In this document: in pieces, positions 19,511-53,786 of the stretch
How positions within the stretch are numbered: the stretch's first letter is position 1
How the letters are laid out: each line of letters starts with the position of its first letter
Origin: Escherichia phage vB_Eco_Tribble
Sequence record: OX016465
Direction: 5' to 3' (one strand)
Length of the DNA: 64,000 nt
The notes under the pieces: generated by a model
What the model saw: only the letters and a program-made list of their open reading frames with translations
Database searches by the model: none
What the model was told of the DNA's origin: nothing
Program-made: the position numbers and the translations under genes

Positions 19511-19516
19511 AATTTA

Positions 19517-19550
19517 AGGCTCCTTTTTACGGGAGCCTTTTTTTTTTTTG
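19517..19550. terminator. Bidirectional intrinsic terminator between convergent modules
   Basis: AGGCTCC-TTTTTAC-GGGAGCC hairpin followed by 12 T; sits between the end of the plus-strand late operon (19510) and the end of minus-strand thyA (19553). Confidence 0.7.
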
Positions 19551-19552
19551 TT

Positions 19553-20452: not shown

Positions 20453-20453
20453 A

Positions 20454-20999
20454 TCAAAAGTGTCCTTTTACTTGTGGAACATAGATTTCAAAGGTTGCTT
20501 TACCATCATCTGAAGGTCTCGACTGCACCTTTGCAAATACACGGTTATCATACAGCTTATCAAAGAAGTTTTCAAAAGGTAAATACACAGTGGTCTCTTC
20601 AGTAACTTTATGGAAAACTGTATGGAAAACTACACCAGCATATGGTAAAGCATCGACAAGAACACCTGCACCACCAATTACAAAGACATCTTCATCAATA
20701 GAGCTATCAAGATACTTCAAAAATGCTCCAAAGGACTCTTTGCTGGCCTTAGCATACATTACATCTTCTTTACCAAAATCTATACCATAATAAGGTACAG
20801 AGTTTGTTAAGATAAGGTTTTCACGTTCAGGTAAAGGCTTACTACCCAGAGTCTTAAAAGTCTCATTGCCCATAACTACTAAGTTGTTTTTAGTAAGTCT
20901 CTTAAACTCTTGCATATCTTGCTTATGTCGAGGCCACGGCATACCAGTTGGAGTACCAAACTCCCCATTTTCACCACTTGCAAAGATTAATTTAATCAT
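20454..20999 (-). CDS. folA: Dihydrofolate reductase
   Basis: DHFR-like N-terminus (MIKLIFA…GMPW…) and GG-containing core; adjacent to thyA as in T4 frd-td. Confidence 0.75.
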   Translation of the reverse strand: MIKLIFASGENGEFGTPTGMPWPRHKQDMQEFKRLTKNNLVVMGNETFKTLGSKPLPERENLILTNSVPYYGIDFGKEDVMYAKASKESFGAFLKYLDSSIDEDVFVIGGAGVLVDALPYAGVVFHTVFHKVTEETTVYLPFENFFDKLYDNRVFAKVQSRPSDDGKATFEIYVPQVKGHF

Positions 21000-21256
21000 T
21001 TTGTAAACCCTTTCTTAATAAACCAGTTGATAACATTCTTCACAGCTTTATTGCTATGGTAGATTAAGTGTGGTGTAGGTTGGTATAAACCATAAGCCCA
21101 GAAAGCAATGATTTCATTACATCCTGTACACCTTGTACTCTCTTCAGCAATATGACCGTTGACTATTTCACTTACCTCACCTTGTAAGTCTGTACATCCA
21201 CAATGTGGACATCGGATAGGTGTTCCATCAGACTCATAGCAGTGTTCAATTTTCAT
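20996..21256 (-). CDS. Small zinc-ribbon protein
   Basis: CPHCGC…CTGC motifs. Confidence 0.3.
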   Translation of the reverse strand: MKIEHCYESDGTPIRCPHCGCTDLQGEVSEIVNGHIAEESTRCTGCNEIIAFWAYGLYQPTPHLIYHSNKAVKNVINWFIKKGFTK

Positions 21257-21772
21257 CTATTTAACCTCAAAAACTGGCTCAAGAACCAATATAAAGTCTA
21301 CACAGTCATCTTCTTCATCCAGAATACCATCAAAATTCTTAGGAACGAAGTCGAAGAGGCTCATAACAAAACAGTCAGAAGTGACCCTGATAGTTCCTCC
21401 TATGTTCTCTACAGTTAACACTGTACGACTTTCTTTTACCTCCCTCAGAAGATTACTCACAAAGTCATCTAAGAAGTACTTCATCAGTGACTTGAAACCT
21501 TTAGGATAATCTGTACCAGAGTATGTTTCAATCTGTGGTACAAGCTTAACATTTATACTAGTCTTTGTTAAGAACGTTTTAGAGAACATACTATCAGGTA
21601 ACTTACAAACAGTCTTTCCAGTACCTTCATGCTCAATCTCAACAAAACCAGCTTCATCGCCACATGTAACTATTTTAAAAGATGCTTCATTCTCATACTG
21701 TGAAGCCATAAACTTTTTAAGCATCTCTTTAAGGAAATCTGCATGAGCATCTTGTAAGAAGATATCAATCAT
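21257..21772 (-). CDS. Hypothetical protein
   Basis: 171 aa ORF in the minus-strand gene series, tightly packed. Confidence 0.3.
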   Translation of the reverse strand: MIDIFLQDAHADFLKEMLKKFMASQYENEASFKIVTCGDEAGFVEIEHEGTGKTVCKLPDSMFSKTFLTKTSINVKLVPQIETYSGTDYPKGFKSLMKYFLDDFVSNLLREVKESRTVLTVENIGGTIRVTSDCFVMSLFDFVPKNFDGILDEEDDCVDFILVLEPVFEVK

Positions 21773-21785
21773 AGTTAATCACCTA

Positions 21786-22145
21786 TTATGGGAACAAGCA
21801 CTTAATGTCATCGTTTTTGAAAACAAAACTTGTGTAGTTATGACCATCAACATCCAACCAAACAGCTTGAACATCTACACCATCAAGATTCTGGTAAAGC
21901 TCTTTGATGAAGTGGTCTTTTACAATCTGACTGCTAGTTGTTTCCAACTTAATGTTCGAGATTGCTGAACCTACAGCCATATAACCCATGACACGTTTCT
22001 TCTCAGTATGCTTAATCTTACCATCTTTGTAAGCCATAATGAGATTGGAAAGAATCTTTACACCATAATACTTTTCAAGGTGAGTAGGTACACCATAAAA
22101 CCCTAATGCGAAGTTTTCAGAGTGGATTATGTTTTCACGTTTCAT
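21786..22145 (-). CDS. Hypothetical protein
   Basis: 119 aa ORF in the minus-strand series. Confidence 0.3.
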   Translation of the reverse strand: MKRENIIHSENFALGFYGVPTHLEKYYGVKILSNLIMAYKDGKIKHTEKKRVMGYMAVGSAISNIKLETTSSQIVKDHFIKELYQNLDGVDVQAVWLDVDGHNYTSFVFKNDDIKCLFP

Positions 22146-22146
22146 A

Positions 22147-22476
22147 TTAATCTGCCAACCTTAAATTGAAATTAACACCAAATTTTTCGCATACTTCCAA
22201 CATATACTCAAGGGAGACGTTACCAGTGAGGTGGATTATGTTGGATACACGAGCCTGAGAGATACCACAAATTTTAGCGACTTGCTCTTGAGAAAGACCT
22301 CTGGATTTAATCTCTCTCTTAAAACGATGTGCAACGAAGTCTCTCATTTCGTCTACATCCATTGGACAAATATAACTCTCCATTTCAGCCTCTCTATCAG
22401 CCTCCCAATCATCTTGTGGAGCATAAGGGTCAAAAACCTCATTCATCTTTCTTCTTCCGTTTGCGTGAAGTGTCAA
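22147..22476 (-). CDS. XRE-family helix-turn-helix DNA-binding protein
   Basis: C-terminal HTH signature GLSQEQVAKICGISQARVSNI; acidic N-terminus; true start may be the internal Met at about 22446. Confidence 0.55.
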   Translation of the reverse strand: MTLHANGRRKMNEVFDPYAPQDDWEADREAEMESYICPMDVDEMRDFVAHRFKREIKSRGLSQEQVAKICGISQARVSNIIHLTGNVSLEYMLEVCEKFGVNFNLRLAD

Positions 22477-22651
22477 TCAATGAATCTATGTTTGTAGCCC
22501 TAACCTTTTCACGTTCATCGTTAAGATAATCATCAAGAGCCTTTTCAATCTGTGAATCATCTTGACAGATAACTGTAAAGACTGTAAAGCCGTCTGTATC
22601 GTCAATTATCTTACCATAACCGCTTCTGGGATGTAACTTTTTAAGAGCCAT
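22439..22651 (-). CDS. Hypothetical small protein
   Basis: 70 aa ORF with basic C-terminal tail (RKRKKKDE). Confidence 0.25.
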   Translation of the reverse strand: MALKKLHPRSGYGKIIDDTDGFTVFTVICQDDSQIEKALDDYLNDEREKVRATNIDSLIDTSRKRKKKDE

Positions 22652-22652
22652 A

Positions 22653-23036
22653 TTAGATACCTGTGCAGCTTCTGTTTTCTAAGAAATACTCAACACCATA
22701 CATAGCTTTTTGCATCAAATCTTCTTTAAACTGGATACGGTGGTTGAGCATAGCCTGTATATCAATATCATCACGGTGTTTCTCTTTAATGTTTGCAGAT
22801 TGCAGGAAATACTCTGCAAGAACACGATACTGGTAGTCAGTCACCTTATCAGTCATCTCTGTTAAAGACTCTTCAGAGATTGGTTTAAGTAGCTCACCAT
22901 TCGCTAGAGCAACACCCTTTACAATCTGACAAGTATCCTCTGGGACGCCTGATAAGTTCACATTTGGTAGTTCTGTTGAATGAACTGGTAAACTCATTGT
23001 CATAACCATTGCAGCAGCTAATAAAATCTTTTTCAT
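22653..23036 (-). CDS. Secreted/periplasmic protein with signal peptide
   Basis: N-terminal MKKILLAAAMVMTMSLPVHS signal-peptide-like sequence; first gene downstream of repeat copy A and a candidate promoter. Confidence 0.4.
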   Translation of the reverse strand: MKKILLAAAMVMTMSLPVHSTELPNVNLSGVPEDTCQIVKGVALANGELLKPISEESLTEMTDKVTDYQYRVLAEYFLQSANIKEKHRDDIDIQAMLNHRIQFKEDLMQKAMYGVEYFLENRSCTGI

Positions 23037-23080
23037 AATGACCTCAAAGTTATATTAAATTTTGTATTACGTTGAGTATA

Positions 23081-23109
23081 AAAATAAGCTATAACACCTG
23101 ACTTGTCAA
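23081..23109 (-). promoter_or_regulatory. Candidate sigma70-like promoter (TTGACA-N17-TATTTT) for the 22653..23036 gene
   Basis: Minus-strand reading gives TTGACA, 17-nt spacer, TATTTT about 45 nt upstream of the start codon. Confidence 0.35.
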
Positions 23110-23270
23110 CAGACTTTATAGCTTATTTGGCAGATTTTTTATAAGGCTACTGCCATCCTTCCATACCTTACCTTACCACACCTAACCATACCTAACCAAA
23201 CTACACCATACAATACCTTGTTAAAAGACCCTCTTAAAGACCTTTTAAAAAGGAGCCTCCGAAGAGGCTG
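23101..23270. repeat. Intergenic repeat copy A (G-free YYACC-periodic tract plus conserved AAAAGACCCTCTTAAAGACCTTTTAAAAAGG box plus hairpin)
   Basis: Shares GGCTACT(G/A)CCATCC…CCTAACCAAACT…TTAAAAGACCCT(C/G)TT(T)AAAGACCTTTTAAAAAGG with 24365-24545; plus strand 23153-23219 has no G. Confidence 0.6.
23241..23270 (-). terminator. Intrinsic terminator (minus strand) after the 23281..23721 gene
   Basis: Minus strand reads AGCCTC-TTCG-GAGGCT followed by CCTTTTTAAAAG. Confidence 0.45.
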
Positions 23271-23280
23271 CCTAGTCAAC

Positions 23281-23721
23281 TTAGAAAGGTTTTCTACGTT
23301 GCTTGTTAATGTTAGCTTTCATAGCAGCTAAATGGTTTTGCTGTTCAATTAGTCGTGAACGTTCTTGATGGCTAAGTGCCATAGTGTTCACATTCTCAAT
23401 TGCTTGAGTGGCTTGCTTTAAAGCTCGACCAATCTTACCAGACATTTTACGTTTTGCAATAGTTGCTTGATGCTTAGGTTCAACCACACGATAACCAACA
23501 CCCATTGAAGCAACCAGATAAATCTTCTCTTCTTTAAGAAGCTTCTCAATAAACTTCTCAAGTCGGTTTAGACGTGTAAGCGCATAAGCCTTCATTTCAT
23601 CTTCGTACTTAACAATGTCACCTTGATAAGTTGGCTTCACAATACCTAAGAAGGTGTCCATCTCAGAATGTGATACAGTGTCACCGTAACTAAACTTTGC
23701 TGCTAATGCTTTCGTATTCAT
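23281..23721 (-). CDS. Hypothetical protein
   Basis: 146 aa ORF flanked by the two repeat copies; basic coiled-coil-like C-terminus. Confidence 0.35.
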   Translation of the reverse strand: MNTKALAAKFSYGDTVSHSEMDTFLGIVKPTYQGDIVKYEDEMKAYALTRLNRLEKFIEKLLKEEKIYLVASMGVGYRVVEPKHQATIAKRKMSGKIGRALKQATQAIENVNTMALSHQERSRLIEQQNHLAAMKANINKQRRKPF

Positions 23722-23723
23722 AA

Positions 23724-24329
<606 letters not shown>

Positions 24330-24364
24330 TTAGTTGATTGTTAAGTTGTTTGTAAAGAACCCTC

Positions 24365-24545
24365 AACAGAAGACTCTTTAGAAACTTGGTAGATTTTTAA
24401 CGTGGCTACTACCATCCACCCATACCTCACATCACCATACCATACCTGACCGGACCTAACCAAACTCCACAGCACCATACATCACATCACACAACCTTAT
24501 TAAAAGACCCTGTTTAAAGACCTTTTAAAAAGGTAAGTCTCATTT
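24365..24545. repeat. Intergenic repeat copy B (G-poor CA-rich tract plus conserved box)
   Basis: Homologous to 23101-23270 including GGCTACTACCATCC, CCTAACCAAACT and TTAAAAGACCCTGTTTAAAGACCTTTTAAAAAGG. Confidence 0.6.
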
Positions 24546-24660
24546 TAATGTAGCTGAGACTAACTACCCATACCAAACAGCACCGCACTATGCCTTACCC
24601 CACCTCACCGAGCCTCGCCCCACATCACTTAAAAAACCCTTTTCAAAGACTCTTAAGTGA
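24546..24660. repeat. Partial third repeat copy with inverted repeats
   Basis: G-poor tract CCCATACCAAACAGCACC…CCTTACCCCACCTCACC; 7-bp inverted repeat AGTCTCA/TGAGACT; 11-bp perfect inverted repeat ACATCACTTAA…TTAAGTGATGT. Confidence 0.5.
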
Positions 24661-24877
24661 TGTTGGTGAGTACCCGTTGGTTTATGCTGCTCAGTATACT
24701 CACCAAATTTTCTATGTCAACAACTTTTTATAAAAAAGTTCTGATAGCTATATGTGTCACGAAACAAAAGATTGTAAACAAGACACCTATTGCAAAAGAT
24801 GTGTCCAAAAGCTTACTTGCAACGTATGACAATACAAAGACAACCAGTATAAACAGAATGACTGTACTGAACATAGT

Positions 24878-26014
24878 TTATTCATAATCCCTAATAACTA
24901 GCCCTACAGGGAACTGTAAAGACCCCTTACGAGTCATCTTCTGGAACTGAACCGTTAAAGGTTTCCCGATAAACTCTTCAGGGTGTTCAGCAAGATACTG
25001 TTTCTTCTCGTGACTAGTCTTCCATGAAACATCTACAAAGACGTTAGGAAGAGTCTCTACAACGAACTTACCATGACCACGCTTATCGGTCTTGACACCA
25101 GTCACTTTAAACTCTTCAGTGTGCATCTTCTTGTGCTTAATCAAGAAGTATGAACGGTGACAACACTCATAGAAGGAGTCTTCAGAGATTGAACGGTACA
25201 TTGCACCTTCAAACTTAGATTCAACCCACTTATCATGAGCTTCATCAAACTCTTCCCAAGAATTTACACGGATAGTCTGTACAGGAACAACTCTACAGGT
25301 ATCCCCAAGCTCAACAATAGGTGAGTTATCAATAACTTCACGACGTTCAGGCCAAGATTTTGAATTGTCGCAGATATCATACCAGTAGAATTTAAGAAGG
25401 TGACGGTCTGGATTGTCAGCATTCTTAATCATAGACACAATATCTTCTAAGTCCCAACCATGAGCATAAATCTCACCATCAAAGTCTTCGACTTGTGGAT
25501 GCAATTTAAGCAACAAAAGCAAATCTGGGATTAGTTCTGCTGGGACGTTGTAAATAGTATTCTCACGAGAATAAGCCGTGAAGCTAACTAAATCAGCATC
25601 TCTTGAGATTCTACAACGTACACCATCAAGTTTTGGTTGAGCATCAGCAGGGAACTTCAGATACTTTGCATGACTAACCTTTGCAGCATCATGAGCAAGC
25701 TGTACACCTACCTTCTCAGTATTCTGTGCAGACTCTTTTGTGTAAGCATAACCTTTACGGTCAACTTGCTTTTTATACTTAGCAGCAACTTCAAAGAGAG
25801 CTTGCTGTTCAGCGTTACGCTCATTCTTTTTACCGATGTTCTTAGGCTCTGCTGTATACTCTTCAAACATCATCTTGCCATTTTCTTTACCATAGGTTGT
25901 AATAACTTTGTCACCTATAGCACCGCATGACCAGATGTTGAAGGAACCGTCTTTATTTTGTTTGTACAGTGTTGTCATTTTTAACCTCTGAGTGATACCA
26001 AGAGTTGCAAGCAT
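24878..26014 (-). CDS. ATP-dependent DNA ligase
   Basis: Nucleotidyltransferase motifs: KLDGVR (motif I lysine), FDGEIY (III), EGAMYR (IV), FLIKHKK (V). Confidence 0.8.
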   Translation of the reverse strand: MLATLGITQRLKMTTLYKQNKDGSFNIWSCGAIGDKVITTYGKENGKMMFEEYTAEPKNIGKKNERNAEQQALFEVAAKYKKQVDRKGYAYTKESAQNTEKVGVQLAHDAAKVSHAKYLKFPADAQPKLDGVRCRISRDADLVSFTAYSRENTIYNVPAELIPDLLLLLKLHPQVEDFDGEIYAHGWDLEDIVSMIKNADNPDRHLLKFYWYDICDNSKSWPERREVIDNSPIVELGDTCRVVPVQTIRVNSWEEFDEAHDKWVESKFEGAMYRSISEDSFYECCHRSYFLIKHKKMHTEEFKVTGVKTDKRGHGKFVVETLPNVFVDVSWKTSHEKKQYLAEHPEEFIGKPLTVQFQKMTRKGSLQFPVGLVIRDYE

Positions 26015-26171
26015 TACATGCGTAAAGCTCTAAGTCATTTTTATCCGGTTTATGAAAACAGTTTGCTCCGCAGTGGCAACGAAATGGCTTTCCACCAACT
26101 GTCAGGACGAAGGACTGAATCTTTCCATCAGGAGTTCGTACAGCATTTTTATGCTTATCTTCTTTGTTCAT
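25953..26171 (-). CDS. Small zinc-binding protein
   Basis: CHCGANC…CNACNSWYH cysteine/histidine cluster. Confidence 0.3.
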   Translation of the reverse strand: MNKEDKHKNAVRTPDGKIQSFVLTVGGKPFRCHCGANCFHKPDKNDLELYACNACNSWYHSEVKNDNTVQTK

Positions 26172-26374
26172 TTCCTCTTACCACCAATCTCTACGTCAAT
26201 AACTTGAACATCGCCAGCAACATCAAACTTATGAATGATGCTTTCCACAGTGTAAGTCCAATCCTCAATGCGAACCAACTCACCTTCTCGTGGGACGATT
26301 GGATTACGTTGAGCTACCGTTGTAGTGGAGTGAACAACATCATAACGATAGATATAGTTTACTAATACTTCCAT
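26168..26374 (-). CDS. Hypothetical small protein
   Basis: ORF in the minus-strand series; start placed at an internal Met to avoid overlap with the lipoprotein gene. Confidence 0.25.
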   Translation of the reverse strand: MEVLVNYIYRYDVVHSTTTVAQRNPIVPREGELVRIEDWTYTVESIIHKFDVAGDVQVIDVEIGGKRK

Positions 26375-26384
26375 CGTTAAAACC

Positions 26385-26627
26385 TCACTCAATAACCGTA
26401 GTATGTGATTGACCATTTTTGCCATAGCTATAAGATGTTGTTGTTTGAGAATTTGGACATCTTACAACAACAATATCTCTACTTATAGCATCACCATGTA
26501 ACTTGTACACTCTGCAATCTTGCATCTCTGGTGGGAGGCTGTAAGAAGCATTCTTATCTTCATAAGAAGGGTTGCAGCCAGATAGAAAAATAACACCAAG
26601 TGCAATTACTGCTTTCCACATAATACT
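26385..26627 (-). CDS. Small lipoprotein
   Basis: Signal peptide with lipobox (MSIMWKAVIALGVIFLSGC); about 80 aa mature protein. Confidence 0.45.
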   Translation of the reverse strand, partial: SIMWKAVIALGVIFLSGCNPSYEDKNASYSLPPEMQDCRVYKLHGDAISRDIVVVRCPNSQTTTSYSYGKNGQSHTTVIE

Positions 26628-26634
26628 CATCCTA

Positions 26635-26880
26635 TTACTGTTCACGATGTTCTACTTCTCTGTATGTGCGTCGGTAGTTTATGATAAGAGGTGCTAATTC
26701 ATTGCTTTTAACATTTGAACGTAACAGTTGCCAGTCAAAACCTTTAGCAACCCTCCCATATAAATTAAATAACTTTACTTTACGTTTCATTTTTTGGTAT
26801 CCCCAATATTCAGAAGTTAATATTAATACGTTCGCCCTTAAGGACTCCTGTGCGGTCTCTTGCAATCTTACCGTCAACAA
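26635..26880 (-). CDS. Hypothetical small protein
   Basis: ORF in the early minus-strand series; start uncertain. Confidence 0.2.
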   Translation of the reverse strand: MLTVRLQETAQESLRANVLILTSEYWGYQKMKRKVKLFNLYGRVAKGFDWQLLRSNVKSNELAPLIINYRRTYREVEHREQ

Positions 26881-27037
26881 TAAGAATATGTGCAGACCTT
26901 AAAGAATCATGATTAAAACCTTTTACGAACTTACTAGGCATCACTACAATAAGCATCTCCTGAATCAACTCTGGAGTATAACAATTGTTGTGAAGTTGCT
27001 GAATAACGTCTGCAAGTGTCATTTTTGATGTCTCCAA
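26810..27037 (-). CDS. Hypothetical small protein
   Basis: 75 aa ORF in the minus-strand series. Confidence 0.25.
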   Translation of the reverse strand: METSKMTLADVIQQLHNNCYTPELIQEMLIVVMPSKFVKGFNHDSLRSAHILIVDGKIARDRTGVLKGERININF

Positions 27038-27228
27038 TACTCAATATCAATAAGTTCTTGTGCAATGCTTTTTAGATTACCTTTCAAGAAAACCTTCTCA
27101 GAACCTGAAAGAGATGAATTGTCAATTAACCTGTTCATTCTCTCAAACAACTTCTGCTTACGGTTCTTGATAGTTTCCTTTGAAGCACCTTTCATCATCG
27201 CTGCATGGGTTCTTCCACGGTGGCTCAT
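27019..27228 (-). CDS. Hypothetical small basic protein
   Basis: 69 aa ORF immediately downstream of polymerase exon 2. Confidence 0.25.
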   Translation of the reverse strand: MSHRGRTHAAMMKGASKETIKNRKQKLFERMNRLIDNSSLSGSEKVFLKGNLKSIAQELIDIEYWRHQK

Positions 27229-27289
27229 AAGCCCTCCTATATAAGATATAGTATAAGGTACTCTTCCCTGAGCACCTTGTCAATACTAA

Positions 27290-27846
27290 TCAGTGTACCT
27301 CATACCAGCTTTTACCAACCTTACCAGTACCTGTAACAAGTGTTTCTTTCTTAAGACCTAAGTTCTTAGAAGCTTGTCCATAATACCAGTCAGTAACTGC
27401 CTTCACCTCTGCCGTCATACTTTCTGGGCATTCCCAACTTGTCTCGTCGTGATAGGAGCACAATAAACGAGCACCTATAGCTGGTTTACGACCGTTCAAC
27501 TTCATCAAACCTTCGTCAATCATACGACGGCAAGCAAGGTTAATTGCTTCATTCTGAACCTGCGCCTCACTACCCATAAGTGTGTAATTCAATAACTTAT
27601 GTGGAGATTTACACCATAACCACGCTCCAGCGACCTGAATGTACCCACCCTTAGCGATTGCAGCACTCTTGCCGAAAACCTCTTCTAATGCCTTCTTAGT
27701 GGCCTTAAAATCGGCTTCTAAGTTATCAAGTAGTTTCTTAATCTTTGGTAGACGCATATAGTAGGTCTGCTTAGTCAATGCACCTTCCTCTGTAGAAGCT
27801 GCCTTAATGGTTTTGGCAAACTTCTCATCACCTGCACCGAACAATA
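27290..27846 (-). CDS. DNA polymerase (family A), exon 2
   Basis: Begins with LFGAGDEK, completing T7-type motif B (T7: …IYGFLYGAGDEK…); contains HDE motif C (SYHDET). 5' boundary is a model. Confidence 0.65.
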
Positions 27847-28651
27847 CATCTGGTCAATACACTCGCAAGGTGTACCAGTTCTCTTATGAACTTCTCCGCA
27901 TTTCTACGGAGTGTCGGACTATATCACGTAGTAGTAATACTACCGTTGCACTTGGGAATGGTCATTAGCTTACCACCCTACTCTACTCAGTTCATACATT
28001 AAGTATGCTTTTCGATAGTCTCTGAACGTTTCTCTGTTAGGAACTCTAAAATACTATTATTTACTAAGGTATGCAATTGCTCTCTTCATGTTCTCTATAC
28101 TATCTGAGAACAGCCCAAGACCTCTGTTACAGTTGTGACACAGCATACCTCTTACCTGTCCTGTTTTGTGGTCATGGTCAACAACCAGCTTGGCTTTATG
28201 TCTTGAACCATCCATGATAAAACCTTCACCACCGCAGATTTGACACTTGTGACCACACTTACTTAGTAACTCTTCGACCTCTTCTCTTTCTAAGCCGTAA
28301 GTCCTTAAGTAATAGTTCTTTACCCTTCCCTTTTCTCCACAAGCAGAACTGCAATACGTCTGTCTTGCTGTTCTAGGTGTAAACTGGTTATTGCAACTTG
28401 GACATATTTTCTCTATGACACGACTTGCTGCTCTTCTGTCTACTTCAAGAACGCAGTTTCTACAACGTTTTTGATTGTACTGATATGGCTTAAACTCTTC
28501 GCCACATCTGGAACAAACTCTTTCTTTATAACCTGCCATTGTCTCTCTCCCATTTCTACTATAGGAGTCCTAACAGAGACTTCGCTGCTGATTACCATAT
28601 CTTTTAAGACTTAGGCTTCCAGCAATTCACAACGTTTTACATGCGCCACTG
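27847..28651 (-). mobile_element. Group I intron in the DNA polymerase gene, carrying an HNH endonuclease ORF
   Basis: Interrupts pol at motif B; R-like GTTCAGAGACTATC (plus 28014-28027) and S-like GATATAGTCC (plus 27914-27923); modelled exon 1 ends in U and intron ends in G. Confidence 0.6.
28057..28539 (-). CDS. HNH homing endonuclease (endonuclease VII-like), intron-encoded
   Basis: HNH core LVVDHDHKTGQVRGMLCHNCNRGLG; several CxxC zinc-finger pairs; lies between the two polymerase segments. Confidence 0.8.
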   Translation of the reverse strand: MAGYKERVCSRCGEEFKPYQYNQKRCRNCVLEVDRRAASRVIEKICPSCNNQFTPRTARQTYCSSACGEKGRVKNYYLRTYGLEREEVEELLSKCGHKCQICGGEGFIMDGSRHKAKLVVDHDHKTGQVRGMLCHNCNRGLGLFSDSIENMKRAIAYLSK

Positions 28652-30824
28652 ACGCATAGATACCATTCTTAGCCTTCTTACGGCCTTTAGTTATCTCGTG
28701 AAGGAGTTCCTCATCCTGTGTCTCTCTACAACGGATAATATCTTCTTCTTTGTTCAATGCAAAATAGATACTGTTAAGTGTATGCGCATCAGTACCTGTG
28801 TAGACTTCATACAAATCATTATCAGCATCGTAACGACAATATTTATCAGCCTCTGGATTTAGGTACTTATCAAGATGCTTGCAGTAGTATCGTCCATCAT
28901 CCTGTTTAGTGAACTCTACAAACTCTTTACCTTCAGTTACCGCTTTGGTGAAGTCTTTATCACCCATAAAGTTACACAGTAAAACAAGCTGTGCAGAGTT
29001 CTGGTCAACTGAAACGATATTAGTCCCTTCCTCACAAATCCACACCTCCCTCATAGGTGCTCCATAGACAGCAGCACCAGACGGTACGTTTACAATACCA
29101 TATTGTGTCATACGTCCAGTTGAAGTACCAAACACCATTGCACCAGCACTAAGGCGACCATCTGGACGAATCTGGTTCAACCAACCTTTTTCATCATCCT
29201 TTGAGTTCTCAATAGTTCTGCGTCGGTGCATCAAAGTATAGTACTTAGCAATCTTCTGTCCAAGTTCACCTTCAATCGTATCATAAGATGATTCAGTAAG
29301 TTTTGGTGAAGTACGGATTAAGCAAGGCTCAAGCAAATCTGTGTACTTCTTCACAGACCAGTTATGCTCAATGTACTGTACACCTTCATGTTCAACATAA
29401 CTCAAACCACACCGCTCAACCATTTCCTGCCACTTAGGATGTTTTGTAATCATCTTTTTATTGTCTTTGAAACGACAAACTTTGACAGGGCGACCATCAG
29501 AGTCTTTCTTGTAGTTCCAGTCATCTGGAATCCAACCAACTGATTTCAAGTAGTCTTTAACAACTGCTACCTGAGTCATACGAGAAACTTCAAACTCAAT
29601 TGGTGTATATGGTGCATCAATCAAACCTGTGTAGCGACTTGACTCAAGTTCAAAGTGGTTAACAACGTGGCTGTTATAATACTTCACAGTTTTAACTGTT
29701 TTTACTGGCTTCCAGTCTTTGCATTTCTTACCAATCTTTGCGTTCAACTCATTGCAAATTGCACGAGCATCCTTCATTGCTACAAAGCCTTCCTTGTACT
29801 CTTCACCAGTTACAGTGTTGGTTGGTGTATAGCAATTCCTTTTTTCAATGTTAAAAATCTTTGTAGTTGGCTTACCAAATGGTTTGATTTCGTATGTCTG
29901 CATCTCGCCATTACGTACCTGCTGACGATACTTTGTCTTAGGGTACTTGGTAATTCTTTTCAGTCCATCTGCATGACCAAATGTTTCAACATACTCATTC
30001 CAAGCTTTTGCAAACTCTTCTCCAGTAACTTTACCTTTAGTCTTAATAGTTGGAGGAAGATGTGGTTCAACTTCTGAAGCAAGCTCATTAGTCAACTTGT
30101 CAAGTTCCTTTACATGGAACTCCATAAGCTCTTTATCAGCTTTCCAACCATTGATAGCTTGTTGACTCATCCAGAAAGATGTTTCTTTAGCTCGCATGTA
30201 AGTTTCATAAGTGTCTATACCACACTTCTTAAGCTTGAGATACTCGTTATCAAGTGCCCGTTTAGTTTTGGCGTTAATACGGATATCTTCTACAACACGA
30301 GTGAAGATTTCTGCATTCCACACACCCCAATGTTCAATCTCTGGTTTACGGACACCAACACGAGCACCCCATGCAGCCAAACCATGAGCACCTTTATAAC
30401 CCTTTGGAGTTGGCCTATCCATCCACTGAACACGAGACTGGATAAGAGAATCCTGAAAGAAATTACTCCACGGCTTACATTTTGGATTATCAAAATTCCA
30501 TAAATCAGGTGCAATGTGATTGAAAACCCACCAGTCATATCCGAGACCATTATGGATGCAAAGACGTTTTGCCTTTAACGCAAACTCAATACCTTCTCGT
30601 AAGCCACCCTTAATGTACTTAGTGTACTTGTGACCGAGGATAGGCTCATCTGTAAAGACCCATACAGGTGGCTCTTCATCGTCAGATTTATAGTCTGCAA
30701 AGGCCATTACGTGAACTTTAGTGAACTCAAGGAGTAAACCATCAGTTTCTGTATCACCAACCAAATGTAAGTTTTTAAAATCTACGTTTTCCATTTTTAC
30801 TCCCTCTAAAACCATTAACCTCAT
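28652..30824 (-). CDS. DNA polymerase (family A), exon 1 with 3'-5' exonuclease domain
   Basis: Exo I motif LVGDTETDGL; polymerase motif A region (VSVDQNSAQLVLL); ends inside motif B (…RKKAKNGIY). The annotated ORF runs 14 codons into the intron before a stop at 28611. Confidence 0.75.
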
Positions 30825-31051
30825 ACATTACTGCAAAAAATTATAAAAAGCAAGTTGACAATGCACTTGACAAGGTGTTAATCTTTGCGAAGTGGGTTTT
30901 TACTTAAAAGGTTACTTAACAGTTTAACTATACAGATACTTTAAAACTCTTAAAAGATTATTTAATAGCTTTTAAAAAGCTTTAAAGTATAACGTATAGA
31001 ATACGTTAAGATAAAAGATTAAAACTTAATAGTTACTTAAAAGAGGCTTAC
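30825..31051. promoter_or_regulatory. Divergent intergenic control region between minus-strand and plus-strand modules
   Basis: 227 bp AT-rich; tandem TTGACA hexamers (30855-30860, 30867-30872); inverted repeat AACGTAT-AGA-ATACGTT (30991-31007); AAAGCTTT palindromes. Confidence 0.4.
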
Positions 31052-43977: not shown

Positions 43978-45174
43978 ATGAACAAAGTACAGATTATTAA
44001 AAAGAACGGCTCACTCGAAGAACCAGATATCAAAAAAGTTTTAGCAGCAGTCACTAAGTCAGCTAATAGGGTTGGGTATAAAGAACTACCACCAGATGTT
44101 ACCCAAGCTCTTGAGTCAGCATTTATGAGGATTCTGGTAAAATCCACTAAGCAGAATAATTTACTCATTTCAGTAAATGATATTCACAGTATTGTTGAGG
44201 GTGCTTTGGCAGAAGTCAATCACGAGATTTATGAGTCTTACTCAACATATAGAAATTACCGTAAAGAAGTTGCTCAAAATTGGGATGAACTCTACCAGAA
44301 GACCAAAGATACACTCTTCTTAGGCGACAGAGAGAATGCTAACTTTGACAGCAGTTTAATTTCTACAAAAGGCTCAATTATTCGTGGTTACCTGACTAAA
44401 GAAATCTTTAAACAGTACCATTTAACACCAGAGGAACTTGAAGCCATTGAAAAAGGGTTTATCTATATCCATGATTTAAGAGACCTAATTTTTGGTGGTA
44501 TCAACTGTTGCCTGTTTGACATTGGTAAAGTGCTGAAAGGTGGCTTTGAAATGTCTGGCATTGAATACTGTGAACCGAAGTCTGTGCTGTCAGCCTTACA
44601 GGTTATTGGTGATGTAGTTCTTTCAGCAACTGCACAGCAATTTGGTGGCTTTACTTTAGCAGAGATTGATAAGGTACTTGTACCGTATGCTAAGAAGTCT
44701 TTAGTGTACCACTCAGAGAAAGCTGAAGAGTACGGAATCCCTAAAGAGCAACACTATAATTACGTAATGGAGCAATTACAGAATGAGTTAACACAAGGTT
44801 TCCAATCTCTTGAAATGAAACTTAACACTGTTCCTTGCAGTCGCGGTGATTTTGCATTTACTACTCTGACATTTGGTCTGTTGGAACCAGATATGCACAA
44901 TGAAGATAACCGTCTTCAGTTTATGATTGCCAATACAATCCTTAACGTAAGGATGAACGGGCAAGGAAAAAGCAAAAAACCTGTTGTGTTCCCTAAACTT
45001 GTGTATATCTATGAAGAAACGAGACATAAGCTTGATGTATGCCAAGCAAGGTTGTTTGAAAAAGCTATTGAGTGTTGCTCTAAAGCTATGTATCCAGATT
45101 TCTTAAGTGTAACTGGACATGGTGCTGTAGCAGAGGCTTTTGAGCGTTCTGGTAAGGTAATTTCCCCGATGGGT
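43978..45174 (+). CDS. nrdD: Anaerobic ribonucleoside-triphosphate reductase (class III), exon 1
   Basis: N-terminal ATP-cone; ends …VISPMG, matching E. coli NrdD …TPMG|CRSFL…; annotated ORF stops one codon later inside the intron. Confidence 0.75.
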
Positions 45175-45916
45175 TAACAAGCTCTATAGCTCATCTAAAA
45201 CGTGCCTAAACAGGGAAACTCTACAGATGTAGACAATCCTGTGCTAAATGATGTACGATGTAAGAAACTATACAACATAGGAGTCTTACATGCCAAACTA
45301 TCACGTCACTGAAGATGGAAAAGTCTTTAGGGAAAATGGTGTAGAGCTTACGCAGTGGAAATCCAACACTGGGTATATGAAAGTGAGGTTTTACGGTAAG
45401 AAGAATCGTGACATGTATGTCCACAGGTTAGTTGCTGAGAAATATGTACCTAACCCGAACAATCTTCCAATTGTAAAACATAAGGACGATAACAAACTAA
45501 ATAACCACGTATCTAACTTAGAATGGGGTACTCATTCTGAGAATGCTAAAGAAGGTTATGAGAATGGATGTTACAAGTTCCACAAGCGTTCATATGCCGT
45601 GAAAGCCACACACAAAGTGACAAAGGAAGTTATTGTTACTAAGTCAATACGAGAGTTATCCAATATACTTGGATACAATCGCAAGACCATCTCTTCAATA
45701 TTGAAGGGTGTAAAAGAGCATAATAACTTCGAATATGAGTTTGAATACATCTAAATGCCGAACGACTAACCGTGATGAATGTAGCGGTGTAGGGTCAAGC
45801 GACTCGAAATGGTACGCTACTTAGAAATAAGTAGAAGATATAGTCTGGACTTACTGGCGACAGTAAGCAGCTTGAATAAAGCGGGGTAAGCTTAGCGAAC
45901 TTACCTGAACAATAAG
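45175..45916 (+). mobile_element. Group I intron in nrdD carrying an HNH endonuclease ORF
   Basis: Exon 1 ends in U (…ATG GGT), intron ends in G (…AATAAG); P-like AACAGGGAAA (45209-45218), Q-like AATCCTGTG (45235-45243), R-like GTAAGAAACTATACA (45260-45274), S-like AAGATATAGTCT (45835-45846). Confidence 0.7.
45290..45754 (+). CDS. HNH homing endonuclease, intron-encoded
   Basis: HNH motif VHRLVAEKYVPNPNNLPIVKHKDDNKLNNHVSNLEWGTHSEN; AGGAG Shine-Dalgarno before ATG. Confidence 0.8.
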   Translation: MPNYHVTEDGKVFRENGVELTQWKSNTGYMKVRFYGKKNRDMYVHRLVAEKYVPNPNNLPIVKHKDDNKLNNHVSNLEWGTHSENAKEGYENGCYKFHKRSYAVKATHKVTKEVIVTKSIRELSNILGYNRKTISSILKGVKEHNNFEYEFEYI

Positions 45917-46864
45917 TGTAGAGCATTTTTATCATCATACCATAACGAATATGGTGAAGAGTTTTATGTAGGTCGTGCTAACATTGGTGCTGTATCTTTG
46001 AACTTACCAATGATTTACCAGTATTCTAAAGAGAATGGCTTAGATTTCTGGAAAGAGCTTGATAAGTACCTAGAAATGATTCGCAGCTTCCACAAGAAAC
46101 GTTACGAAATGATTGCTAATATGTCAGCAAGTTCTAACCCTCTTGCGTTCACACAAGGTGGTCTGTACAAAGGGAATAAGAAACCTACTGACAAGGTTGG
46201 CTGGGATATCGTGAAGTCCTTCACAGCTTCTTTTGGGGTTACTGCGCTTGATGAGCTATCTGTTCTTGCTGAAGGTAAACGACTTCATGAAGTTGGAAGC
46301 TGTAGTTTTGCATATGATGTTCTGGAATATATCAACATGAAGACTGAAGAGTTTAAAAATGAAGATGGCTTCTTATATGCAGTCTATGGCACTCCAGCAG
46401 AATCACTTTGTGGAACTCAGCTAAAACAGTTCAGAGATATGTTTGGCGTTATCAAAGGCGTTTCTGACAAGGAATACTTTACAAACAGTTTCCATATGAA
46501 TGTTGCAGCAGATATTACACCATTTGAGAAGCAGGACTTAGAAGAACCCTTCTTCCATATCTGTAGAGGCGGCAGAATCCAGTATGTAAGAGTGGCTAAC
46601 CCAGAAAACTTATCAGCACTTAAGAGTTGTATTACAAGAGGGATGTTGAAAGGTTTCTATCAGGGACTTAACTTTGACTTAGCAATCTGTGAACATTGTG
46701 GTAACAGACCAAAGGCTGATGCTGAAGAATGTGAGGTTTGTCATTCACACGATATCTCTGTGATTAACAGGGTGTGCGGATATTTGGGATGGACTAAGAT
46801 TAAAGGTGAATCCCGAATGAATGATGCAAAAATCGCTGAGATTCGCGACAGAATTTCTATGTAA
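45917..46864 (+). CDS. nrdD: Anaerobic ribonucleoside-triphosphate reductase, exon 2
   Basis: Frame open from 45917: CRAFLSSYHNEYGEEFYVGRANIGAVSLNLP aligns with E. coli CRSFLGVWENENGEQIHDGRNNLGVISLNLP; C-terminal zinc ribbon and glycyl-radical loop RVCGYLG. Confidence 0.75.
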   Translation, partial: CRAFLSSYHNEYGEEFYVGRANIGAVSLNLPMIYQYSKENGLDFWKELDKYLEMIRSFHKKRYEMIANMSASSNPLAFTQGGLYKGNKKPTDKVGWDIVKSFTASFGVTALDELSVLAEGKRLHEVGSCSFAYDVLEYINMKTEEFKNEDGFLYAVYGTPAESLCGTQLKQFRDMFGVIKGVSDKEYFTNSFHMNVAADITPFEKQDLEEPFFHICRGGRIQYVRVANPENLSALKSCITRGMLKGFYQGLNFDLAICEHCGNRPKADAEECEVCHSHDISVINRVCGYLGWTKIKGESRMNDAKIAEIRDRISM

Positions 46865-49489: not shown

Positions 49490-49502
49490 ACAGATACTAT
49501 AG

Positions 49503-49532
49503 GGGAACTGTAAAGGTTCCCTTTTTATTTTG
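49503..49532 (+). terminator. Intrinsic terminator
   Basis: GGGAAC-TGTAAAG-GTTCCC followed by TTTTTATTTT. Confidence 0.55.
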
Positions 49533-49540
49533 GAGATAAT

Positions 49541-50056
49541 ATGTACCTGTCAAATCTGAAACGTTCGGCTGCAATGTCAGTGTTAAGGCTCAGCTTTGAG
49601 GAACGTCAAGAGTTCATTGACTCCCACCAATACGACCCCTCCAACTCCAATCACATGATTCTCTGGAATCGTGAGAGTGCTCGTGAAAGAGCATTATTCC
49701 GATATTATCCACACTACACCATAGATAACCTGTATGAATGTTTTGTTGTGAAGAACACCATTACAGTACTCAATAAACTTTGCAGATACACAGGTAGTCA
49801 ATCCTTCACATTAGGACACCACAAACCTGTTACAAAGGGTGGTGAGCATCACTGTGCAAACTGGTTTATCCAGACTAAACTTGATAACCAGAAGCAAGGG
49901 GATAGTCTTTTAAGCACCCCTAAGATGACCTACGAAGAGCAAGAGAAATATATCAAAAATAATATGCCAGATGTGCTTGACAACAACTATACAGATTTGG
50001 CAATATCTCTCCTGTTGAAGTTCGAGACAGTTTATAGGGCAACTTACAATGGCTAA
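49541..50056 (+). CDS. Free-standing HNH endonuclease
   Basis: HNH core LGHHKPVTKGGEHHCANWFIQTKLDNQ. Confidence 0.6.
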   Translation: MYLSNLKRSAAMSVLRLSFEERQEFIDSHQYDPSNSNHMILWNRESARERALFRYYPHYTIDNLYECFVVKNTITVLNKLCRYTGSQSFTLGHHKPVTKGGEHHCANWFIQTKLDNQKQGDSLLSTPKMTYEEQEKYIKNNMPDVLDNNYTDLAISLLLKFETVYRATYNG

Positions 50057-50327
50057 AGAGAAGTGGGAGATTTTACCATTAGTCAGTGAAGGCGGTAATG
50101 GTTGTGAAATGTACATGATACGTGGTCATGTTCCAGAACCAATTGCACTTGAGATGGTAAACAACTTTACAGATGGCTCTTACAAAGACTTAGGGGAGCC
50201 AACTATAAAGCAGCAATGGGTAAAGCCTGTACCAGACAGCACAGGTAACTGTAGTGTACTTTATCACGTTGTAGACCCTGCAAAATGCAAATCTGCAATG
50301 GCAGTAACAAACGTAACTTTTGATTGA
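50049..50327 (+). CDS. Hypothetical protein
   Basis: 92 aa ORF immediately upstream of the Prs-like gene. Confidence 0.3.
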   Translation: MAKEKWEILPLVSEGGNGCEMYMIRGHVPEPIALEMVNNFTDGSYKDLGEPTIKQQWVKPVPDSTGNCSVLYHVVDPAKCKSAMAVTNVTFD

Positions 50328-51220
50328 GAGAGAAAACTATGAAAACTGTTATTGAAGCCGTCGTCACCGCACAAGAGAAATTCTTCCACACAGAAAAATT
50401 CAATATCATTCAATTTCCATCTGGAGAAATTGGTGGAAACTTCTCTGAAGATTTTGTTAAGTTTGCTGAGCGTAATGCTGGTAAGATTGATAATGTTATA
50501 TTTACTGTACAGGGGTATGACAAAGATACACTGTTTGCATTAGCTTTGGCTAAGGATGCCGTTGACAGTCTTGTTCCCCAGAAATCAGCGATGAAAACCG
50601 TTGTTTTCGGGTTCTTACCAAATGCTCGATATGACCGCCACATGTTCAAAGGTGATGCAGCAGCACTGAAAGTCTTTGCCAACCTAGTTAATGCAATGGG
50701 CTTTGATGCAGTATGTGCTCTTGACCCTCACAGTAATGTTGCAGAAAACTTATTTAAGTGCTTTCAGAGCATGAAGCAAAAAGATGTGGCAGTACACTTT
50801 GCAAGCGACCCACGCATTGATTACTTAGTAGCCCCAGATGCAGGTGCTTCTAAGAAGATTGCAGAGACTGCTAAAGAGGTGGATAAACCATATATCACAA
50901 TGTCTAAAGTGCGTAACCTTAAGACTGGTGAAATTACTGGTATGCGAATCCTTGATGATGTTGATTTGACAGATAAAACCGTCATGATTCTGGATGATAT
51001 CTGTGATGGTGGTCGAACCTTCGTAGAGGCAGCTAAACACCTACGTGAAGCGGGTGCAAAACGTGTGGAACTCTATGTAACTCATGGTATTTTCTCTAAA
51101 GGTGTTGAAAACTTACTTGACAATGGTATTGACCATATCTACACTACAAACACTTTAGGTGAAGCTAAAGACCGTGGCTTAACACATTACGCCCAAGTTA
51201 CTGTAGCAACCATTGATTGA
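50324..51220 (+). CDS. Ribose-phosphate pyrophosphokinase family protein (PRPP synthetase-like; possibly ADPR-PP synthetase of NARP1)
   Basis: Phosphoribosyltransferase-type motif VMILDDICDGGRTF; about 300 aa; immediately upstream of the NAMPT-like gene. Confidence 0.7.
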   Translation: MREKTMKTVIEAVVTAQEKFFHTEKFNIIQFPSGEIGGNFSEDFVKFAERNAGKIDNVIFTVQGYDKDTLFALALAKDAVDSLVPQKSAMKTVVFGFLPNARYDRHMFKGDAAALKVFANLVNAMGFDAVCALDPHSNVAENLFKCFQSMKQKDVAVHFASDPRIDYLVAPDAGASKKIAETAKEVDKPYITMSKVRNLKTGEITGMRILDDVDLTDKTVMILDDICDGGRTFVEAAKHLREAGAKRVELYVTHGIFSKGVENLLDNGIDHIYTTNTLGEAKDRGLTHYAQVTVATID

Positions 51221-51229
51221 AACTTTATA

Positions 51230-51250
51230 GGGGCTTGAAAGCCCCATTTT
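51230..51250 (+). terminator. Hairpin / weak terminator between the Prs-like and NAMPT-like genes
   Basis: GGGGCT-TGAA-AGCCCC followed by ATTTT. Confidence 0.35.
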
Positions 51251-51265
51251 GAGAGAGATTAAAAG

Positions 51266-53047
51266 ATGACTAAATCACTTTATGCAGTACCAGCAGGTTT
51301 AAACGCGGACGCTTACAAATCTGGCCATGTTTACCAGTACCCTAGTGCAACAGAATACTTAATGTTCAACCTGACACCACGTAGTGACAAATGGTTTAAC
51401 AGCCCCTTAGCAATTGATGGTGTAGTGGCTTTTGGTATTCAACGTTTTGTTAAAGATTACTTGATAGACCACTGGAACGCCACTTTCTTTGAACGTGATA
51501 AAAAAGAAGCAATTGACGAAATCTTAGAAGTCATGAATGGTGTTCTGGGTAAAGATGCTATCGGTCGAGAGCATTGGGAAGCACTTCACGACTTAGGTTA
51601 TCTACCAGTTGAAGTATACTCTGTAGAAGAAGGCACAGTTGTCCCGATGCGTGTCCCAATGATTGTCTTCCAGAACACTGTTTCAGGTTTCCATTGGGTA
51701 GCAGGTTATCTGGAAGACGCTTTCTCTGCTGAGATTTGGAAGGCTTGCACCATTGCAACTATTGCATTGCACTACAAACGTATCTGTAAGAAGTGGGCTG
51801 ACCTTACTTGCGACAACGACTTTCATTTACCTTATCAGTGCCATGACTTTGCTATGCGTGGTATGTCCGGCTTTACTGATGACGCATTTAATGCTGTAGG
51901 CCACTTAACCAGTTTTAAAGGGACTGACAGCTTCCCTGCTGTATACACAGCTAAACGAATCTATGGACAGTCTTACCCAATCTCTGATATTGGTAGTTCT
52001 GTACCAGCCACTGAACACTCTGTAATGTGTGCAAACATTGCTTGGGAAGGTGGTAATGAATTGATTGAAGAAGAAAGACGCTTTAAAGGTGAGTTACAAA
52101 CCTTCCGTCGCTTCTTAACAGAAACTTACCCAACTGGTATTGCAAGTATTGTTTCAGATACTTATAACTTCTGGAGAACTGTGTCAGAAATCTTACCAGC
52201 ACTTCGTAAAGAAATTATGGAACGTGATGGTAAGCTGGTAATTCGCCCTGACTCTGGAGACCCTGTACATATTGTCACGGGTTATAAAGCAATCCACTTA
52301 GAGTGTGCTAAGAAGGCTTATTACGAGCACCTAAGCAAGCTGGAAGCTAGTGACACAATGTTGAATGCTGTTATGAACATGAAGCTTGAAAACATCAACT
52401 ATGGAATTGCTGGATGGCTACTGTCAGAAGGCTACGAAATGGTTGTTGACAGAGAAGACTTTGAAGCTGCTGATACGGTGATGTTGAAAGATGCTTATAT
52501 GGTTGGTTCTGCAAACGTTGTAACACGTCCTGTAGCTGAAATTGATGGAGCTATTAAGACACTGTACAACATCTTTGGTGGAACTATTAACTCTAAAGGG
52601 TTTAAGGTACTGGATGAGCATATCGGCCTTATCTATGGTGACTCTATCACACTGGAACGTGCAAACGAAATACTGAAGCGTCTGTATGAAATGGGTTTTG
52701 CAAGCTCTAACGTAGTGTTTGGCGTAGGCTCTTACACTTACCAGTACATGACTCGTGACACCTTTGCATTTGCTGTTAAAGCAACTCTTGCAAGCATTGG
52801 TGGTAAAGAGATTATGCTTGCAAAAGACCCTAAAACAGATAGTGGTGTTAAGAAGTCTGCTTTTGGTGGTGTAGCACCTATGTGGGATGGTGATAAGTTG
52901 AAAGCTGTAGATGGCTATGGATTCCAGAGCTTTGCAGATGCACTTGAACATCCAGCTTGTGCTTTACGTTTAGTCTTTAGTGACTCTGAGCAGTTCGGTT
53001 ACACAACTCTTGGTGATATTCGAAACAATATTGACAAGCAGCTTTAA
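51266..53047 (+). CDS. Nicotinamide phosphoribosyltransferase family protein (NadV/NAMPT-like; possibly Namat of NARP1)
   Basis: 593 aa; N-terminal …NADAYKSGHVYQYP… resembles the NAMPT TDSYK-type region; adjacent to the Prs-like gene. Confidence 0.7.
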   Translation: MTKSLYAVPAGLNADAYKSGHVYQYPSATEYLMFNLTPRSDKWFNSPLAIDGVVAFGIQRFVKDYLIDHWNATFFERDKKEAIDEILEVMNGVLGKDAIGREHWEALHDLGYLPVEVYSVEEGTVVPMRVPMIVFQNTVSGFHWVAGYLEDAFSAEIWKACTIATIALHYKRICKKWADLTCDNDFHLPYQCHDFAMRGMSGFTDDAFNAVGHLTSFKGTDSFPAVYTAKRIYGQSYPISDIGSSVPATEHSVMCANIAWEGGNELIEEERRFKGELQTFRRFLTETYPTGIASIVSDTYNFWRTVSEILPALRKEIMERDGKLVIRPDSGDPVHIVTGYKAIHLECAKKAYYEHLSKLEASDTMLNAVMNMKLENINYGIAGWLLSEGYEMVVDREDFEAADTVMLKDAYMVGSANVVTRPVAEIDGAIKTLYNIFGGTINSKGFKVLDEHIGLIYGDSITLERANEILKRLYEMGFASSNVVFGVGSYTYQYMTRDTFAFAVKATLASIGGKEIMLAKDPKTDSGVKKSAFGGVAPMWDGDKLKAVDGYGFQSFADALEHPACALRLVFSDSEQFGYTTLGDIRNNIDKQL

Positions 53048-53060
53048 AAGTATATGATAA

Positions 53061-53088
53061 GAGGCTCCTACGGGAGCCTTTTTAATTT
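53061..53088 (+). terminator. Intrinsic terminator
   Basis: AGGCTCC-TACG-GGAGCCT followed by TTTTAATTT. Confidence 0.6.
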
Positions 53089-53100
53089 CTGGAGAAGATT

Positions 53101-53445
53101 ATGGATAGCCTTTCTATATGGTTTAACAAGAAACCTGTACAACCTAAATACTTACAAGTTGCCTATACAGACATCCTTGAAGTTCTCGGTAAGGAAAAGT
53201 TTGAAAAGTTCTGTGAAGGTATCTATAATCACCATTGTCAGTTTGCTACGAAAGAGGGTATGTTTGTCATAGAACAGTTCTTTGGCAGAGACCCAGATGA
53301 CTATGAAGAGATTAGCTTTGTAATGAAATACATGATAGAGTATATTGAGAATCGTGGATTCGAAGTTAATCCTGAATTTTATGAACATGAGGGTGTACCT
53401 TTAGCAAAAGGTTTTGATGGTATACTTGTTAACTGGACTTGGTAA
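53101..53445 (+). CDS. Hypothetical protein
   Basis: 114 aa acidic ORF. Confidence 0.3.
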   Translation: MDSLSIWFNKKPVQPKYLQVAYTDILEVLGKEKFEKFCEGIYNHHCQFATKEGMFVIEQFFGRDPDDYEEISFVMKYMIEYIENRGFEVNPEFYEHEGVPLAKGFDGILVNWTW

Positions 53446-53786
53446 AAGTTATGAAAATCAAAGAGATGAACATCAACGTTGTCCTAGAAGAACGTTGGGA
53501 AAACATTAAGAAACCTGAAGATGGTAAAAAGTTTCTTAACAAAATTTTAGTAGCAGCTAAAGAAGAACTTACGGGTAAGGTTGCAGCAGCAATCACAATA
53601 AAAGTCTGTGTAAAAGGTCTTCCACAACATCACCAATTTGCTCTTGATGAGTTTAAAGAAAACTTCTACAATCCAAATAAACAGATGCTTGAAAGTAACT
53701 TTGCAGTGTCTACAAGTATCGTCCATGACAGAAGCTTTATCCTTTACAAAAATATGAGAGGTGAGTCATGCAAGCATATTGGATAG
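53439..53786 (+). CDS. Hypothetical protein
   Basis: 115 aa ORF; start uncertain. Confidence 0.25.
   Translation: MVKVMKIKEMNINVVLEERWENIKKPEDGKKFLNKILVAAKEELTGKVAAAITIKVCVKGLPQHHQFALDEFKENFYNPNKQMLESNFAVSTSIVHDRSFILYKNMRGESCKHIG

Follow-up and report, generated by a model that had tools for sequence, protein, structure and literature searches.

A probable two-gene NARP1 operon in a Felix O1-like Escherichia phage, closely matching genes 79-80 of phage Bas63

Introduction

Escherichia phage vB_Eco_Tribble, a Felix O1-like phage (Felixounavirus), carries a gene for a Prs-like protein next to a gene for a NAMPT-like protein, and the question is whether this pair serves canonical nucleotide salvage or forms NARP1, a pathway that reconstitutes NAD+. 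The recent discovery of NARP1, by which phages restore a metabolite that host immunity has destroyed, is an important one. We analysed a stretch of 64,000 nucleotides of this phage (sequence record OX016465; hereafter, the window) and conclude that the two genes, hereafter adps and namat, very probably are a two-gene NARP1 operon, orthologous to genes 79-80 of phage Bas63. The original prediction, made from the letters of this DNA, had proposed the pair as a candidate NARP1 system, consisting of an ADP-ribose pyrophosphate synthetase (Adps) and a nicotinamide ADP-ribose transferase (Namat), and had added that such pairs are usually annotated as salvage genes. The latter is indeed the case for approximately 250 related records.

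Results

The gene pair and its counterpart in phage Bas63

Both genes lie on the plus strand and are separated by a gap of 45 bp. Their products are assigned to families far beyond chance: Adps matches the Pfam families Pribosyltran (2e-11) and Pribosyl_synth (3e-10) and the PHROG family phrog_619, "ribose-phosphate pyrophosphokinase" (7e-99), and Namat matches NAPRTase (6.5e-35), NAMPT_N and phrog_448, "nicotinamide phosphoribosyl transferase" (4.5e-202). The predicted adjacency and common orientation of a Prs-like and a NAMPT-like gene are thus borne out. The first gene had been given as 298 amino acids long, starting at position 50324. This open reading frame (ORF; 50324-51220) exists, but a different start is preferred: the TTG at 50324 lies partly within the stop codon of the preceding ORF, the ATG at 50339 follows the purine-rich motif GAGAGAGA, which is common to the starts of both genes, and the same ATG is the start annotated in Bas63. 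Hence, Adps most likely comprises 293 amino acids.

The 2724-bp adps-namat region shares 96.2% DNA identity with Escherichia phage JohannRWettstein (BASEL phage Bas63). The proteins align without gaps and at equal lengths, with 284/293 identical residues (97%) between Adps and bas63_0079 and 582/593 (98%) between Namat and bas63_0080, and none of the substitutions (9 in Adps, 11 in Namat) affects a mapped functional residue. The synteny is also kept, NrdD/NrdG being encoded upstream and rIIA/rIIB downstream of the pair. Both genes are intact and constrained by purifying selection (dN/dS versus Bas63 is 0.08 for adps and 0.055 for namat).

Genes 79-80 of Bas63 constitute the operon whose deletion phenotype and metabolite, ADP-ribose pyrophosphate (ADPR-PP), founded NARP1 (Osterman et al., bioRxiv 10.1101/2024.02.11.579819). 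In that study, Bas63 lacking these genes formed approximately 20-fold fewer plaques on SIR2-HerA cells and caused a deeper NAD+ depletion, the rescue by the operon was independent of host pncC/nadR, and ADPR-PP (m/z 720.010) appeared as a new metabolite in infected cells only when the operon was present. As NARP1 was described on almost identical sequence, the system is already known, and the window pair is an orthologue of the type NARP1 operon. The NARP1-type assignment of the original prediction is thereby upheld; what it put forward as a candidate is the type example of a system already described.

In the proposed mechanism, a host defence NADase (of the SIR2, TIR or SEFIR type) would split NAD+ into ADP-ribose (ADPR) and nicotinamide. 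Adps would then move the beta,gamma-pyrophosphate of ATP onto the terminal ribose of ADPR, yielding ADPR-PP, and Namat would swap the pyrophosphate of ADPR-PP for nicotinamide, so that NAD+ would be regenerated and the phage replication could go on. Both reactions, ADPR + ATP to ADPR-PP and ADPR-PP + nicotinamide to NAD+, were demonstrated with the SpbetaL1 enzymes (bioRxiv 10.1101/2024.02.11.579819), and the former, with AMP as the second product, also with ICP1 Adps (PMC13586617). By analogy, the window Adps and Namat would be expected to catalyse these two reactions.

Sequence features of Adps and Namat

The sequence criteria dividing Adps from Prs come from the structures of ICP1 Adps (PMC13586617), and those dividing Namat from Nampt, from the SpbetaL1 Namat structures 9w5w/9w5x (PMC12774641). 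Together with the orthology to Bas63, they separate the Adps/Namat pair from Prs/NadV, contrary to the earlier statement that sequence alone cannot do this.

The sites in Adps were mapped by alignment of ICP1 Adps, window Adps, Bas63 Adps and E. coli Prs. The catalytic beta-hairpin lysine is kept as K190 (ICP1 K185, SpbetaL1 K162), and so are all acceptor residues (ICP1 to window: R87 to R97, H121 to H131, D161 to D167, D212 to D219, D213 to D220, D216 to D223), the I-C-D-G start of the PP loop, and ICP1 F221 (F228 in the window). F18 of ICP1, which stacks on the adenine from the neighbouring protomer, corresponds to F16 in the window, whereas E. coli Prs has Arg (Arg18) at this position. The C-terminal alpha11-alpha12 filament/regulatory module of Prs is absent (293 versus 315 amino acids, with a gap of approximately 20 columns at the C-terminus in comparison with E. 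coli Prs); according to the authors, its loss is a defining signature of Adps (PMC13586617). In pairwise comparisons, the window protein scores 120 bits with the verified ICP1 Adps (36% identity) and 65 bits with E. coli Prs (b1207; 28% identity), and the top solved canonical Prs scores only 68 bits.

The catalytic core of Namat is likewise retained (SpbetaL1 to window: D13 to D15, Y15 to Y17, F189 to F195, R192 to R198, D215 to D221, A242 to A248, H245 to the catalytic H251, R306 to R327, D308 to D329), and G458-D459 is also present. D15, Y17, F195, R198, D221, H251, R327 and D329 are invariant among 38 homologs. The SCH adenine-clamp signature found only in Namat, GS-X-phi-X-phi-X-phi-TRD, is present as GSYTYQYMTRD (residues 488-498), with Met as phi3, where Asn and Val are commonest elsewhere. 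The SCL loop reads S40-D41-K42-W43. Its third residue is known to be R, K or Y and, in the case of K or Y, the fourth residue stacks on the adenine; the K-W arrangement has been described for Bas63 Namat (PMC12774641).

The best sequence matches of the window Namat in the PDB are the SpbetaL1 structures 9w5w/9w5x (429 bits), followed by H. ducreyi NadV (351 bits), Xanthomonas Nampt (179 bits) and mammalian NAMPT (approximately 140 bits). An AlphaFold2 model computed from an alignment of 38 sequences (mean pLDDT 93.1, pTM 0.91) leads to the same proteins, the best fold match being the Namat crystal structures 9w5w/9w5x (target-normalised TM 0.95), ahead of H. ducreyi NadV and mammalian NAMPT. 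The window proteins carry the large majority of the published Adps/Namat features, including all catalytic residues and most specificity features.

NARP1 versus canonical salvage

Several observations weigh against assigning the pair to NARP1. In Adps, the adenine-stacking F92 of ICP1 aligns to M102, with F103 adjoining, although the alignment of this loop is uncertain, and F223 aligns to E230. The PP loop is CDGGRT instead of CDGAAS (ICP1 C215-S220), A218, A219 and S220 being replaced by G225, R226 and T227, and in appearance the loop falls between those of ICP1 Adps and Prs; the contacts of A-A-S in ICP1 Adps are described as formed by backbone amides (PMC13586617). Namat carries an inserted 85-residue module (considered below). 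The NARP1 enzymology stems from the SpbetaL1, ICP1 and DyoEdafos homologs rather than from Felix O1-type proteins. Finally, SpbetaL1 Namat forms nicotinamide mononucleotide (NMN) from phosphoribosyl pyrophosphate (PRPP) in vitro when ADPR-PP is absent (bioRxiv 10.1101/2024.02.11.579819), and hence the window Namat may retain some canonical activity.

The last point is also what one would cite in favour of canonical salvage, in which PRPP would come from a genuine PRPP synthetase and NMN from a genuine NadV/Nampt, and host enzymes would convert NMN to NAD+, as implied by the annotation in essentially all of the approximately 250 related phage records and in Pfam and PHROGs. However, ADPR-PP accumulates only in the presence of the Bas63 operon, and SpbetaL1 Namat supplied with both substrates yields NAD+ as the only product (bioRxiv 10.1101/2024.02.11.579819). 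Moreover, the window Namat bears the adenine-clamp motif, which Nampt lacks, and the window Adps has lost the C-terminal module of Prs. For the Bas63 proteins, which are 97-98% identical to those of the window, canonical salvage has already been refuted for the most part. We regard it as highly improbable here, and the two-gene NARP1 operon remains the preferred interpretation.

Insertions in Namat

The module at residues 342-426 of Namat is specific to Felix O1-like phages. In the structure model it is confidently predicted to fold autonomously, and a structure search of the PDB and BFVD yielded no relative by fold. It evolves faster than the remainder of namat, yet is still under constraint; 5 of the 11 Namat substitutions relative to Bas63 fall within it. 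The paper on Namat structures (PMC12774641) does not discuss this module. It could add a function new to NARP1, such as regulation of the enzyme, a docking site for Adps or some other partner, or escape from a host Namat inhibitor, but we consider this rather unlikely; the module might just as well be a neutral decoration of the enzyme surface, placed at a known hot spot for insertions.

A second, shorter insertion occupies residues ~258-273 (52037-52084). It immediately follows EHSVMCAN, the motif of the catalytic His, at a site where Namat homologs have from 0 to approximately 37 extra residues.

Transcription unit and flanking genes

The features of the locus are listed in Table 1. The intercistronic hairpin (RNA fold centroid of the 56-nt region -11.5 kcal/mol, z = -2.9) is identical in Bas63 and absent in Erwinia phage phiEa21-4, where the equivalents of adps and namat overlap. 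With the ATTTTG behind it, the hairpin spans 51230-51251; it may serve to terminate transcription in part or to stabilise the mRNA, thereby setting the Adps:Namat ratio. The hairpin downstream of namat (-17.2 kcal/mol, z = -3.05) probably marks where the transcription unit ends; phiEa21-4 has an annotated terminator at the corresponding site. The upstream hairpin is weaker (-14.3 kcal/mol, z = -1.9).

Table 1. Features of the adps-namat locus, in window coordinates
Feature	Position	Strand	Basis and remarks
Terminator-like hairpin with T-run, upstream	49501-49523	+	pattern scan
171-aa ORF, phrog_3500	49541-50056	+	PHROG family without assigned function
92-aa ORF	50049-50327	+	PHROG family without assigned function
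Shine-Dalgarno-like motif of adps, GAGAGAGA	50326-50333	+	5 nt upstream of ATG 50339; read from sequence
adps, ADP-ribose pyrophosphate synthetase (Prs-like), probably 293 aa	50339-51220	+	ORF, homology, residue mapping
Intercistronic hairpin GGGGCT-TGAA-AGCCCC, then ATTTTG	51230-51245	+	between adps and namat; sequence
Shine-Dalgarno-like motif of namat, GAGAGAGA	51251-51258	+	7 nt upstream of ATG; read from sequence
namat, nicotinamide ADP-ribose transferase (NAMPT-like), 593 aa	51266-53047	+	ORF, homology, residue mapping
Lineage-specific insertion module of Namat, ~85 residues (aa 342-426)	52289-52543	+	coding region
Terminator-like hairpin with T-run, downstream	53059-53082	+	12 nt past namat stop; pattern scan
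Small flanking ORFs 3' of namat	53101-53445 and 53439-53786		PHROG families without assigned function

The upstream and downstream hairpins bracket not two, but four co-oriented ORFs (171 aa, 92 aa, adps and namat), and the order of a 171-aa homolog, a small ORF, adps and namat is kept in phiEa21-4, a distant Ounavirinae phage. In addition, two extended forms of NARP1 have been described. In NARP1-AP, a Macro-domain ADPR-1''-phosphate phosphatase (Adpp), present in 15% of NARP1 operons, lets the pathway beat the aRES defence (bioRxiv 10.64898/2026.01.28.702374), and in phage DyoEdafos, a RyR-domain glycosidase (RyDEP) in the NARP1 locus channels cyclic ADP-ribose (cADPR) signals into NARP1 (PMC13232231). 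A small flanking ORF of the window could be a third component of either kind. This variant is, nonetheless, very unlikely. Among two ORFs on each side, no Pfam match to a Macro domain was found at E<=0.05 (with hmmscan, which is less sensitive than the HHpred of bioRxiv 10.64898/2026.01.28.702374), nor one to the RyR domain at the same threshold, and no ORF separates adps from namat. The 92-aa ORF is restricted to the Felix O1-like phage group, in the rV5-like phage alia no gene annotated as prs or NAMPT lies within 6 kb of the 171-aa homolog, and the Bas63 phenotype came from deleting genes 79-80 alone. Since neither a Macro-domain phosphatase nor a RyR-domain glycosidase is seen among the flanking genes, the window locus appears to be plain two-gene NARP1.

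The 171-aa ORF itself has a weak HNH-endonuclease-like match and a motif GHHKP...GG...N...N. Its family is kept across Ounavirinae and also occurs in rV5-like (Stephanstirmvirinae) phages, where it adjoins a UvrD-type helicase.

Genome setting and distribution

The locus lies in the gene order class I ribonucleotide reductase (RNR), split NrdD, NrdG, small ORFs, adps-namat, small ORFs, rIIA, rIIB, and the surrounding 24-kb stretch is approximately 95% identical to several Felixounavirus genomes. In a phage collection search, the adps-namat region had matches in 251 records, nearly all of them Felix O1-like, 30 of which are 95-99% identical to it; the hosts named for the matching Felix O1-like phages are Escherichia, Salmonella, Shigella and Citrobacter. 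The locus also has 95% identical Felix O1-like counterparts in GU169904.1, "Staphylococcus phage SA1", and in "Campylobacter phage" records, whose labels most likely reflect mixed or mis-assigned assemblies, not the true host range.

Proteins of approximately 496 amino acids, annotated as "nicotinate phosphoribosyltransferase" on megabase-size contigs of Klebsiella, Cronobacter, Phytobacter, Kosakonia, Kluyvera and Erwinia, share 46-48% identity with the window Namat and have the clamp motif GS[FY]TYQYNTRD. Such proteins probably belong to NARP1 copies of bacteria or prophages, similar to those reported in PMC12774641.

Two observations concern the window outside the locus. The anaerobic RNR gene nrdD (43978-46864) consists of two ORFs, 43978-45177 and 45998-46864, split by approximately 820 bp bearing an HNH endonuclease ORF (45290-45754); NrdD of Bas63 is annotated as a two-piece join, and the interruption gave no Rfam group I intron at the gathering score. 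At ~19500-31000, the GC skew is negative and all large ORFs are on the minus strand, forming a divergently transcribed block, while the rest of the window is plus-strand.

Discussion

Being a near-identical orthologue of the founding Bas63 operon, the window locus adds nothing to the concept of NARP1. Its practical value lies in annotation: by the residue criteria applied here, the names Adps and Namat can replace "ribose-phosphate pyrophosphokinase" and "nicotinamide phosphoribosyltransferase", which the approximately 250 related records still use for these genes. As for the defence range, through adps-namat the phage would be expected to counter NADases of the SIR2, TIR and SEFIR types, and not aRES, since no Adpp or RyDEP accessory is present; it would not be expected to recycle cADPR signals through this locus either. 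Such predictions matter if these phages are chosen for therapy.

Comparison with known systems

Prs (E. coli b1207) and NadV/NAMPT (H. ducreyi NadV, human NAMPT) have ancestry, fold and the core phosphoribosyl-transfer chemistry in common with the window proteins. E. coli Prs differs from the window Adps by having the alpha11-alpha12 module and by Arg18 in place of Phe.

Two other phage pathways serve the same purpose, the restoration of NAD+ under NADase-based defence. NARP3 (Bas30) is built from a PnuC-like transporter and NadR-like proteins, which are unrelated to the window pair, and the identity with NARP3 was rejected on this ground. NARP2 (KVP40 Nampt and Nmnat/Nudix) relies on a true, PRPP-dependent, clamp-less Nampt in phages without Adps. 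This identity was rejected as well, since in the window Adps adjoins the NAMPT-like gene, which bears the Namat clamp motif.

The extended systems, NARP1-AP (Adps-Adpp-Namat of Vibrio phage Gary) and NARP1 with RyDEP (Mycobacterium phage DyoEdafos), share the Adps and Namat core with the window and carry accessory genes, none of which was detected in or beside the window operon.

SpbetaL1 Namat and ICP1 Adps have the same folds, catalytic residues, SCH clamp motif and acceptor site as the window proteins, as well as the same loss of the Prs module. SpbetaL1 Namat is approximately 38% identical to the window Namat in the fold-search alignment; the latter differs by its two insertions (residues ~258-273 and 342-426) and by K-W instead of R in the SCL loop, while Adps differs from its ICP1 counterpart in the PP loop (CDGGRT versus CDGAAS). 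Bas63 is the closest of all, belonging to the same genus and having the same gene order, neighbours, intergenic hairpin and ribosome-binding motifs, with all mapped functional residues identical to those of the window.

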